Origin: Escherichia coli
Lineage (GTDB): Bacteria > Pseudomonadota > Gammaproteobacteria > Enterobacterales > Enterobacteriaceae
Assembly: GCF_030013205.1 (NCBI RefSeq)
Contig: NZ_CP122648.1
Direction: 5' to 3' (one strand)
Length of the DNA stretch: 64,000 bases
The position numbers and the translations under genes are program-made. The notes beneath the pieces are model-generated. The model was not told the origin of the DNA. It saw only the letters and a program-made list of their open reading frames with translations, and did not search any database. Position 1 is the stretch's first letter, and every line of letters starts with the position of its first letter. Shown piece after piece: positions 14,692 through 15,799 of the stretch.

Positions 14692-14910
14692 ATGCAGAAA
14701 CGAGAACCCGTCATCATCGCGCCAGACTATACCGATGATGAACTTTATGAGTGGATGCGCCAGAAAATTAATGCAGCGCAGGATCTGAAATGGGCCAATG
14801 AAGCCAGGGCTAAGCAGGCTGAAAATCTGTCCGCTCTGGAGCAGGATATCACCAGGCTGGAAAAAGCAGCGGCATTAAGCATTGCCAGAATGATTTCATA
14901 CCCGCGTTAA
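14692..14910 (+). CDS. Hypothetical small protein, 72 aa
   Basis: ATG with AGGAA SD; convergent with the 15046-15477 gene. Confidence 0.45.
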   Translation: MQKREPVIIAPDYTDDELYEWMRQKINAAQDLKWANEARAKQAENLSALEQDITRLEKAAALSIARMISYPR

Positions 14911-15045
14911 TAGCTAACCAACGAAGCTAAGGTTGGTAATTAAGGAGTTCTCCACGGGTCAGGTGGAGTGCGTGCGCCGGACACGGGTGAGCATCCGGTA
15001 CGTTCTTTAAAAATCTGGATAGTCCCAACTTATTTAAACGGTTAA

Positions 15046-15477
15046 TTATCTTGAGTTCATCCAGAACTTATTATTGCAAGCGGGGCAAAAAGTACGAAAA
15101 TGAGCATCAAAGCGCATTATTTCCATTGGCTGAAGTACAGATATTACCTTTTTTCCAAAACATTGTGGGCAAAGATACACAGTTATCTCAGTATCGCCTA
15201 TAAATTGCTTCTTGGAATATACAAGGGTTCCAGAATCAAGCTTGTTAAGCTTGTAACCTTCCGCCTGTCGCTGAAAATCTTCTGTCTCTGCAATTTTTGC
15301 TTTGAGATGCATTATCTCTTCATCACGAAAGCGGATCGCATCGCAAAGAGAGAAGCATTCCGCCTGAAGCGTGATTAGTTTGTTCTGAAGTTCAATAGTT
15401 GCGGCTTTAACTTCTGCATCCGTTTTTGCGTCATTAATAACCTTAGCGAGACCAGCTGTCTCCTTTATCGCAGCCAT
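15046..15477 (-). CDS. Hypothetical coiled-coil protein with C-terminal zinc ribbon
   Basis: 143 aa from ATG at 15477; CPQC…CPAC at C-terminus; upstream perfect TATAAT flanked by direct repeats. Confidence 0.5.
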   Translation of the reverse strand: MAAIKETAGLAKVINDAKTDAEVKAATIELQNKLITLQAECFSLCDAIRFRDEEIMHLKAKIAETEDFQRQAEGYKLNKLDSGTLVYSKKQFIGDTEITVYLCPQCFGKKVISVLQPMEIMRFDAHFRTFCPACNNKFWMNSR

Positions 15478-15799
15478 AGCCGCTGACAGTTCTGCTATCA
15501 CGTTGAGTACTCTTCTCGTTGTTGGGGATATCCGGATTATACAAATTTCTTGTTGTTGGGGAATAACAGGAACCACCTCGCCTGACGTGGTTAAAAGCAG
15601 GCACACAACGCGAAAGCGTACGGCGAGGTAGCTGGTTCATAGATAGCCTGTCGTTAAATTTTCGTCGACCGTGCACTTCCGGTTGTGGCAATCCGCGAAA
15701 TGGCGCGGCGGTAAGTATGGCTGGGTTATCCTTACCCCATTAGTGGCACCGGGTTGTCAGGTTGACCATACGCTTAAGTGACAACCCCGCTGCAACAAC

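Follow-up and report, generated by a model that had tools for sequence, protein, structure and literature searches.

The sieB system of phage P22 and the Rip1 protein of Escherichia phage HK446 are the closest described systems to the locus analysed here, a gene for a zinc-ribbon protein with its upstream region on the minus strand of a 64,000-nt stretch of Escherichia coli DNA (contig NZ_CP122648.1, assembly GCF_030013205.1; the whole stretch is called the window). In P22, sieB lies between gene 24 and ral, and its translation is switched from SieB to Esc by sas, a cis-antisense RNA of 105 nt (Ranade and Poteete 1993, Genes Dev 7:1498, as summarised in PMC7067206 and PMC12197685). The sequence of P22 sas derived from RNA-seq (PMC13397905) is the opposite strand of the module found upstream of the window gene; it spans the start codon, the complement of the second of two direct repeats, a hairpin (UUCUCGCUGUA-GGGG-UACACGAGAA) and a conserved core. 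Rip1 ('ring interacting pore 1') is a prophage-encoded protein described by the Maxwell laboratory, which according to a conference report blocks incoming phage (PMC12908700), and it is listed among the systems sensing the small terminase subunit (bioRxiv 10.64898/2026.04.30.721860). The title of PDB entry 9oox, 'Escherichia phage HK446 Rip1 in complex with the Enterobacteria phage T6 small terminase', and secondary reports indicate that it caps the small-terminase ring of the infecting phage (~12-mer). In HK446 (locus L138, NC_019714 25911-26405), rip1 (gp37) is located antisense between N and a ral-like gene and is preceded by a PsieB/sas module of the P22 allele (CCCCTACAGCGAG / CCCCTACAGTAAG).

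Both the Rip1 family and the PsieB/sas module are already known, and the window appears to add a new divergent member of the former and a new allele of the latter. We consider it probable that the window contains a decayed prophage with a deleted immunity region, which carries a Rip1-family moron in the sieB slot under the control of a P22-type PsieB/sas module. Prophage-expressed abortive or exclusion genes adjoining the immunity region are also represented by lambda rexAB and BstA; however, these encode unrelated proteins and are co-oriented with cI. To our knowledge, no sas-type module is known for either of them. The gene that follows the module is referred to below as its cargo, and the elements of the locus are as follows.

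15000 to 15600, no strand: cassette of about 600 bp (cargo gene plus promoter/antisense module), absent from K-12 Qin between ydfC and dicF (alignment)
15046 to 15501, minus strand: predicted Rip1-family gene, 151 aa from GTG 15501 (phmmer, profile, AF2, Foldseek, PHROG 1244)
15510 to 15514, minus strand: Shine-Dalgarno-like AAGAG, 8 nt upstream of GTG 15501 (sequence; AAGAG at the same position in homologous loci)
15515 to 15527, minus strand: repeat 2, CCCCAACAACGAG, predicted start of the cargo mRNA, to which the antisense hairpin would pair (equivalence with P22)
15541 to 15536, minus strand: -10 hexamer TATAAT of a PsieB-type promoter (matched in the alignment by GATAAA, the -10 of PsieB as annotated in P22)
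15549 to 15561, minus strand: repeat 1, CCCCAACAACAAG, overlapping the -35 region; on the plus strand it gives the 5' arm and loop of the hairpin (covariation with repeat 2)
15547 to 15572, plus strand: sas-like hairpin, UUCUUGUUGUU-GGGG-AAUAACAGGAA, 11 bp including two G.U pairs (folding; centroid fold; stem covariation)
15573 to 15603, plus strand: conserved core, CCACCTCGCCTGACGTGGTTAAAAGCAGGCA, which in P22 makes up the 3' part of sas; the backbones diverge after it (comparison)
15497 to 15610, plus strand: predicted span of a sas-like antisense RNA, ends approximate (homology to the P22 sas reads and alignment)

The zinc-ribbon protein belongs to the Rip1 family by sequence and predicted fold

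The minus-strand open reading frame (ORF) ends at 15046 and carries a CPQC and a CPAC motif. An earlier annotation of the window, made from its letters only (the sequence-only reading), had described it as a protein of 143 aa; the ORF and both motifs are indeed present, but the start is most likely a different one. ATG 15477, which gives the 143-aa form, is codon 9 of a longer form of 151 aa that begins with GTG 15501, and the latter start is indicated by RefSeq (WP_046788612.1) and by the homologue alignments; in the homologues, too, the start is the corresponding GTG, which AAGAG precedes by 8 nt.

A phmmer search of PDB sequences matched 9oox Rip1 as the sole entry (E 1.4e-12, residues 5-146 against 15-155 of 164). 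A profile built from 47 homologues matched the same protein with an E value of 4.1e-21 over residues 15-160 of 164, and BLASTP against HK446 gp37 gave 28% identity (E 9e-18). Both CxxC pairs align with Cys pairs of Rip1, and C111, C114, C139 and C142 are invariant in the 47 homologues. The AlphaFold (AF2) model of the ORF has a mean pLDDT of 90.7 and consists of two helices (2-24 and 28-80) and a beta/zinc-ribbon domain (84-150). Structure prediction followed by a Foldseek search, which had been proposed as a check along with the earlier annotation, returned chains 9oox_L and 9oox_M as the top two PDB matches (prob 1.00; TMq/TMt 0.46/0.53 and 0.65/0.76); no other match reached an E value of 0.001, and the next one had an E value of 0.29. 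Sequence and model thus identify the zinc-ribbon protein as a predicted divergent member of the Rip1 family, for which the homology suggests a function in phage defence.

The window locus and HK446 Rip1 share colinear full-length homology (profile E 4e-21), the predicted fold of long helices and a four-Cys zinc-ribbon/beta domain, the size class (151 versus 164 aa), the antisense position in the early-left region and the type of upstream module. They differ in the repeat allele, which is CCCCAACAAC in the window and CCCCTACAG in HK446, and in their surroundings: the window gene is located between ydfC and a dicF-like RNA on a Rac/Qin-like backbone, whereas HK446 rip1 is found between N and ral. 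Furthermore, the window carrier is a non-inducible remnant, and Rip1 activity is known for HK446 and would be shared by the window protein through homology. Scans of the ORF against Pfam, NCBIfam and PADLOC gave no meaningful family, with sub-threshold hits to plant DUF641 and coiled-coil noise only, and no match to SieB (PF14163) was obtained; in PHROGs, the ORF falls into phrog_1244, annotated as function unknown.

The gene occupies the sieB slot as part of an inserted cassette

The true position of the ORF is downstream of ydfC, inside the early-left (dicB) operon. Where the window has the cassette of about 600 bp, K-12 Qin has 46 unrelated bp, flanked by ydfC and by the conserved segment that precedes dicF. 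The zinc-ribbon gene and its upstream region are a moron, that is, a self-contained extra gene, which lies antisense inside the early-left operon. Homologues of gene plus module were found in 402 of 5,426 complete E. coli genomes when at least 80% of the query had to be covered, and partial-coverage matches to the cassette occur in about 2,500 E. coli genomes. The E. coli homologues reside in prophages of differing backbone and immunity type, always antisense and near the repressor side of the early-left operon. The homologues of Edwardsiella and Symbiopectobacterium are likewise antisense in the early-left operon, the former near cI, and the Plesiomonas homologue, also antisense, is found in this operon near cI, between N and cIII. 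A Plesiomonas shigelloides prophage (L133) also contains a gene with a BstA_C domain (5226-6152) between cI and N in addition to the rip1-like gene in the sieB slot; two defence candidates are stacked here in one early-left region.

The zinc-ribbon gene occupies the classical slot of the superinfection-exclusion gene sieB. This gene runs antisense to the PL operon; the module directly precedes it and is partly antisense to its 5' end. P22, K-12 Rac sieB and HK446 rip1 share one layout, namely core, arm, CCCC, arm (repeat 1), -10, repeat 2, Shine-Dalgarno sequence and start codon. Compared with P22 sieB/esc/sas, the core, the hairpin, the position of the -10, the repeat at the mRNA 5' end and the antisense orientation in the PL operon are the same; however, the window cargo is not SieB, there is no evident Esc-type internal product, and the repeat and hairpin represent another allele. 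K-12 Rac sieB shares the slot in a RacR-type prophage, antisense between ydfA-like genes and kilR, as well as the hairpin, -10, repeat and start codon; in contrast to the window, the Rac cargo is SieB and its core has diverged (CACCACCTCCGGGCTTCGGTGGT).

Promoter, hairpin and conserved core of the module

Across 61 nt, the module matches P22 at the feature annotated 'sieB: promoter' with 82% identity (blastn against phage genomes, E 2e-6). On the minus strand, the ORF is preceded by CCCCAACAACAAG-aaatttg-TATAAT-ccggatat-CCCCAACAACGAG-AAGAG-tactcaac-GTG. The sequence-only reading had noticed a TATAAT bracketed by direct repeats, and this arrangement is present: the hexamer runs from 15541 to 15536, between repeats at 15549-15561 and 15515-15527. 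Taken as 16-nt units (15547-15562 and 15513-15528), the repeats are 94% identical and 34 nt apart. The repeat pattern was observed three times in the window, compared with 0.13 matches expected by chance, and none of 100 shuffled sequences reached three. A TAnnnT-like hexamer is kept at the -10 position across alleles. In the curated P22 record, the sieB RNA starts at the first base of the repeat equivalent to repeat 2, and the P22 -10 aligns with the window TATAAT; by this alignment, the window mRNA would start at repeat 2, at about 15527-15529, and the TATAAT and the repeats are read as parts of a P22-type PsieB promoter/leader and of the antisense RNA sas.

The hairpin formed by repeat 1 and the arm upstream of it has a predicted free energy of -10.1 kcal/mol on the plus strand and of -1.4 kcal/mol on the minus strand, and of 52 variants, 44 form it more stably on the antisense strand (means -8.3 versus -5.4 kcal/mol). 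The stems of 43 distinct variants comprise 268 Watson-Crick pairs, along with 40 pairs that are G.U on the antisense strand and 12 that are A.C; the count used a strand-neutral definition of the stem and per-sequence folding in place of RNAalifold, which had missed the hairpin on a MAFFT alignment because bulges shift the stems out of register. The mismatches in the cargo-strand stem are mostly C.A, which correspond to G.U on the other strand. Stem sequences are wholly different between alleles, and pairing is preserved. For the mRNA 5' end, no stable structure is predicted (-2.2 kcal/mol). When the whole region was folded, neither strand was more stable than shuffled sequence (z -0.56 and -1.07), and the local hairpin alone is significant. 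Rfam scans, at the gathering score or at E<=1, returned nothing over the module.

The core is nearly invariant, and a small stem within it is supported by one compensatory change, found in Plesiomonas (ACCAC/GTGGT to ACCGC/GCGGT). An H-type pseudoknot in the core is not claimed, since a single compensatory change stands behind it. A second copy of the core, as a putR-like partner, was not found within the window. Interpretations of the core and repeats as nut, put, RfaH-ops, Chi, DnaA-box, GcvB-mimic (AgvB-like) or integron/IS-end sequences were dropped once P22 sas had been matched. In Qin-type backbones only, part of the core (ACCTCGCCTGACG, 15575-15587) is 85% complementary to CGTACGGCGAGGT (15617-15629), located 29 nt downstream; within the early-left transcript, the two could pair as a long-range stem that would be an alternative to local folding.

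Module reuse and covariation of the repeats

The upstream segment is common to many loci that have a different gene behind it. A scan of viral contigs with the adjacent conserved motif CACRTCAGGCGAGGTGG yielded 120 loci, and 129 instances of the module were recognized over all loci fetched. A downstream ORF could be called in 118 of them, and these ORFs form 25 clusters, a few of which look like incidental motif matches. Rip1-like proteins make up 32 members, the ECs1072 family 21 and a 68-aa zinc ribbon 10; several clusters consist of membrane proteins, and two are true SieB (PF14163). Repeat 1 and repeat 2 covary over 18 alleles, among them CCCCAACAAC, TTCCACAGTCAA, CCCCTACAGCG, CCCCACCAA and CCCCAACATAA: repeats of the same module are identical at 11 of 12 positions, compared with 4.9 of 12 for repeats paired across modules, and a value as high was not obtained in any of 10,000 permutations. 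One repeat allele occurs with different cargo, backbones and repressor types (RacR versus LexA-type cI).

If the hairpin is the recognition element, a duplicate of its target must exist in the promoter region and covary with it. Since the repeats covary and G.U pairs occur only on the antisense strand, RNA-RNA recognition appears to fit them better than binding of protein operators. Some modules in the sieB slot, both viral and from E. coli (L008, L020, L030 and L075), are shorter and have no repeat 2; here, the core is followed by an extended -10-like TATNCT (TGGTATCCT) and then by a hairpin, the 3' arm of which serves the cargo as its Shine-Dalgarno sequence, an arrangement that would fit the same recognition logic.

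These comparisons led us to a broader proposal, which is plausible but tentative: the PsieB/sas cassette may be a portable, allele-specific 'self-immunity switch' that serves at least about 20 unrelated cargo families across Enterobacterales (Rip1, SieB, the ECs1072 family, small zinc ribbons and membrane proteins can be named), in which the covarying repeats act as a recognition code and the window gene is a Rip1 paralogue under a distinct allele, locked ON. In the searchable literature, we found no description of a module that precedes Rip1 and about 20 other cargo families, nor of covariation between the hairpin and the leader repeat.

The immunity region was lost from a prophage remnant

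The window contains a cryptic Rac/Qin-like lambdoid prophage, which lies between tRNA-Ser and yccA and from which the head and terminase genes have all gone; one IS1 is present. The 20 best matches to the window are porcine E. coli (enterotoxigenic E. coli (ETEC), O139:H1 and other swine isolates). The sister strain ETEC4073 (NZ_CP122660.1) carries this prophage at an identical site and has retained intact racR, ydaS, ydaT, ydfA and ydfB; its gene order is DnaT-like (339 aa) <- ydaT <- ydaS, then racR -> DUF1391 (ydfA) -> ydfB -> ydfC, followed by the zinc-ribbon ORF on the minus strand and dicB. Comparison by blastn and base by base revealed that 2,560 bp, corresponding to 3441-6000 of the ETEC4073 locus (L002 of NZ_CP122660.1), are absent from the window, and that the flanks are at least 99.7% identical on both sides. 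The deleted segment comprises racR, the cro-like ydaS, ydaT, ydfA (DUF1391), ydfB and the 5' half of the DnaT-like gene. In RefSeq, the DnaT-like coding sequence of the identical allele is marked 'incomplete, missing N-terminus', in line with the features at the junction, which are listed together with the genes on its early-left side.

14191 to 14652, minus strand: 3' remnant of the DnaT-like replication gene, a pseudogene from which about 182 N-terminal codons are deleted (Pfam DnaT E 1e-17)
14661 to 14664, no strand: deletion junction with 4-bp microhomology GATA (blastn and base-by-base comparison with NZ_CP122660.1)
14692 to 14910, plus strand: ydfC, 72 aa, in an early-left operon of the ydfABC-dicF-dicB type (RefSeq WP_001171945.1, 'protein YdfC')
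16047 to 16229, plus strand: dicB, downstream gene of the early-left operon, given as context (Pfam DicB E 7e-37; RefSeq)

No ORF in any frame of 14400-16140 matches a helix-turn-helix (HTH) family of Pfam, and the sequence-only reading was right to see no recognizable HTH repressor in this interval. Its conclusion of an unusual immunity-position locus did not hold: a divergent pair of HTH repressors between the replication and early-left genes is missing from the window and present in the undeleted ETEC4073 allele, and the absence of the repressor is a secondary loss by one deletion. The same deletion puts the replication genes beside ydfC, so that the next gene seems to stand at the immunity position, which is an artefact; the gene itself lies inside the early-left operon. 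The discovery of a standard repressor had been named at the outset as evidence that would speak against a novel locus, and RacR at this place in the undeleted allele is, in spirit, such a repressor.

Proposed mechanism

By analogy with P22 and HK446, the locus could operate as follows. From its own PsieB-type promoter, with a TATAAT -10 and a poor -35, an mRNA would be made that begins at repeat 2, and the opposite strand would give rise to a sas-like antisense RNA whose 5' part is complementary to the leader and start codon. The mRNA 5' end would find its complement twice in this RNA, the second time in the loop and 5' arm of the hairpin, which is composed of repeat 1 and the arm upstream. 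When the carrier grows lytically, or when a phage with the same allele infects, antisense transcription would stop translation of the defence protein, as suggested by P22, and the carrier phage would thereby be spared its own abortive system. The antisense RNA may come from a promoter of its own or from processed early-left read-through. Following the example of HK446 Rip1, the window protein may recognize the ring-shaped small terminase of an infecting phage and assemble on it as an oligomeric cap or pore, whereby the infection would be aborted. As racR and the early-left promoter region have been deleted from the remnant, the gene is probably on constitutively.

Alternative explanations

Several observations weigh against the proposed Rip1-type defence gene under PsieB/sas control. 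Identity to HK446 Rip1 is only 28%, so that the trigger could differ, and PADLOC (2023) has no model for the family. A simple consensus promoter scan did not call the TATAAT promoter because its -35 is poor, and a promoter and terminator scan called neither a sigma-70 promoter nor a terminator for the antisense RNA on the plus strand; an antisense promoter that lay within the coding sequence could not be conserved, as the cargo genes differ. The G.U and A.C counts are drawn from related sequences and hence are not independent events. The internal Met9 is not strongly conserved among homologues, so an internal start of the Esc type found in P22 may not apply and is not claimed here. Finally, we infer the expression of both RNAs and the defence phenotype from sequence and analogy.

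A Rip1-like fold could also serve a somewhat different purpose, in that the protein may sense another phage component or act in another way (another ring protein, or exclusion without a pore), and the module may be a promoter only, with no functional antisense RNA in the Rac/Qin-like prophages of E. coli. The low identity to HK446 Rip1 and the variable C-terminal stretch between the two CxxC pairs would agree with a different trigger, and the lack of a detected plus-strand promoter and of an evident counterpart, in the window version, to the 5' stem-loop predicted for P22 sas would agree with a promoter-only role. However, the homology to Rip1 is colinear over the full length and includes the zinc site, and in four genera the rip1-linked modules keep hairpin and core through changes that are compensatory or give G.U pairs, which would be hard to explain for a mere promoter; we rate this explanation as unlikely. 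The sequence-only reading took the repeats for operators of a regulator that it left unnamed. Two CCCCAACAAC repeats bound by a host or phage DNA-binding protein that occludes RNA polymerase at the TATAAT would account for their position on both sides of the -10 at a spacing of 33-34 bp in nearly all long-form alleles, a poor -35 would suit a factor-dependent promoter, and a change in binding specificity would likewise make the two sites covary. However, the same allele occurs with different immunity types, flanks and cargo, so no linked regulator could covary with 18 alleles, and the cI-cro intergenic region of L005 has no CCCCAACAA motif. G.U pairs between the upstream arm and repeat 1 on one strand only are a signature of RNA rather than of a protein-bound palindrome, repeat 2 is the mapped mRNA 5' end in P22, where the region is a known antisense RNA, and the module itself holds both recognition partners. 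The repeats more readily belong to a P22-type PsieB/leader and sas, and we assign the operator explanation a low probability.

The sequence-only reading had also offered three roles for the protein, as a repressor, an anti-repressor or an exclusion factor, of which the last agrees with the Rip1 homology and the sieB slot. A non-canonical repressor or anti-repressor in place of cI or RacR might be suspected because zinc ribbons are able to bind nucleic acids and because, from the replication genes to dicB, no other small gene is both intact and equipped with a promoter of its own. Yet the undeleted allele contains racR and ydaS plus the same gene, homologues always accompany a standard cI/Cro pair, fold and sequence match Rip1, which binds terminase rings, and similarity to DNA-binding families was not found in Pfam or NCBIfam. 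As racR and its neighbours were deleted, such a role is not needed to explain the locus, and we regard it as very improbable. The Rip1-family moron under a PsieB/sas module thus remains the favoured explanation.

Neighbouring genes and further observations

The convergent 72-aa gene with a good Shine-Dalgarno sequence that had been reported for 14692-14910 is ydfC: GAGGA precedes the ORF, which matches PHROG 1744 (E 2e-39), and the gene order is as in K-12 Qin. The next element of the operon had been taken for a dicF arm, but it is not canonical DicF. No Rfam match to DicF (RF00039) was found upstream of dicB, at the gathering score or at E<=1. At the dicF position (15800-15862, plus strand), a hairpin is followed by a T-run (GGCGGGTATC...GATACCCGCC-TTTTT), and the 5' 'seed' part is unlike that of K-12 DicF; the element looks like a variant small RNA of the DicF/KilS type, possibly with a different target specificity. 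Between this position and dicB, two perfectly complementary segments of 19 nt (15868-15886 and 16011-16029) form an inverted repeat with 124 nt between them; this repeat stops shortly before the Shine-Dalgarno sequence of dicB. The segment between its arms gives a weak Rfam match to STnc100 (33.5 bits; gathering score 47), and the arrangement also occurs in K-12 Qin.

Further decay and additions are seen elsewhere in the prophage. A gene with an Rv2179c-like 3'-5' exonuclease domain (16516-18987, plus strand) is split into two ORFs in the window; it is intact in the sister strain (2,472 bp) and is annotated as frameshifted or with an internal stop in a strain that has the same deletion (99.97% identical over window positions 9001-21500). 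A toxin-antitoxin pair of the ParD/ParE type (ORFs of 106 and 99 aa, 10078-10703, plus strand) is oriented opposite to the neighbouring early-right genes. Rfam matches at the gathering score were obtained for IS009 (555-753, minus strand, 223 bits) and the PyrD leader (47358-47431, minus strand, 98 bits), which are unrelated to the finding.

Implications

What was noticed in the sequence is real, and its explanation is mostly ordinary, combining a deletion with known families; a moderately interesting by-product is a modular, antisense-controlled defence slot. The supposed new immunity region is replaced by a testable annotation of WP_046788612.1 (PHROG 1244) as a member of the Rip1 anti-phage family, and porcine ETEC and O139 strains probably express this Rip1-like gene from a prophage remnant. 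The sieB slot together with the conserved core (CCACCTCGCCTGAYGTGGNTAAAAGCAGGC) provides a cheap sequence handle for defence candidates in prophages. The covarying repeat and hairpin point to a way in which phages could carry abortive-infection genes without being killed by them: if the switch is real, a phage would be able to silence its own abortive-infection gene, and phages of the same allele would escape. The RNA 'allele' further suggests how related phages could evade each other's defences.

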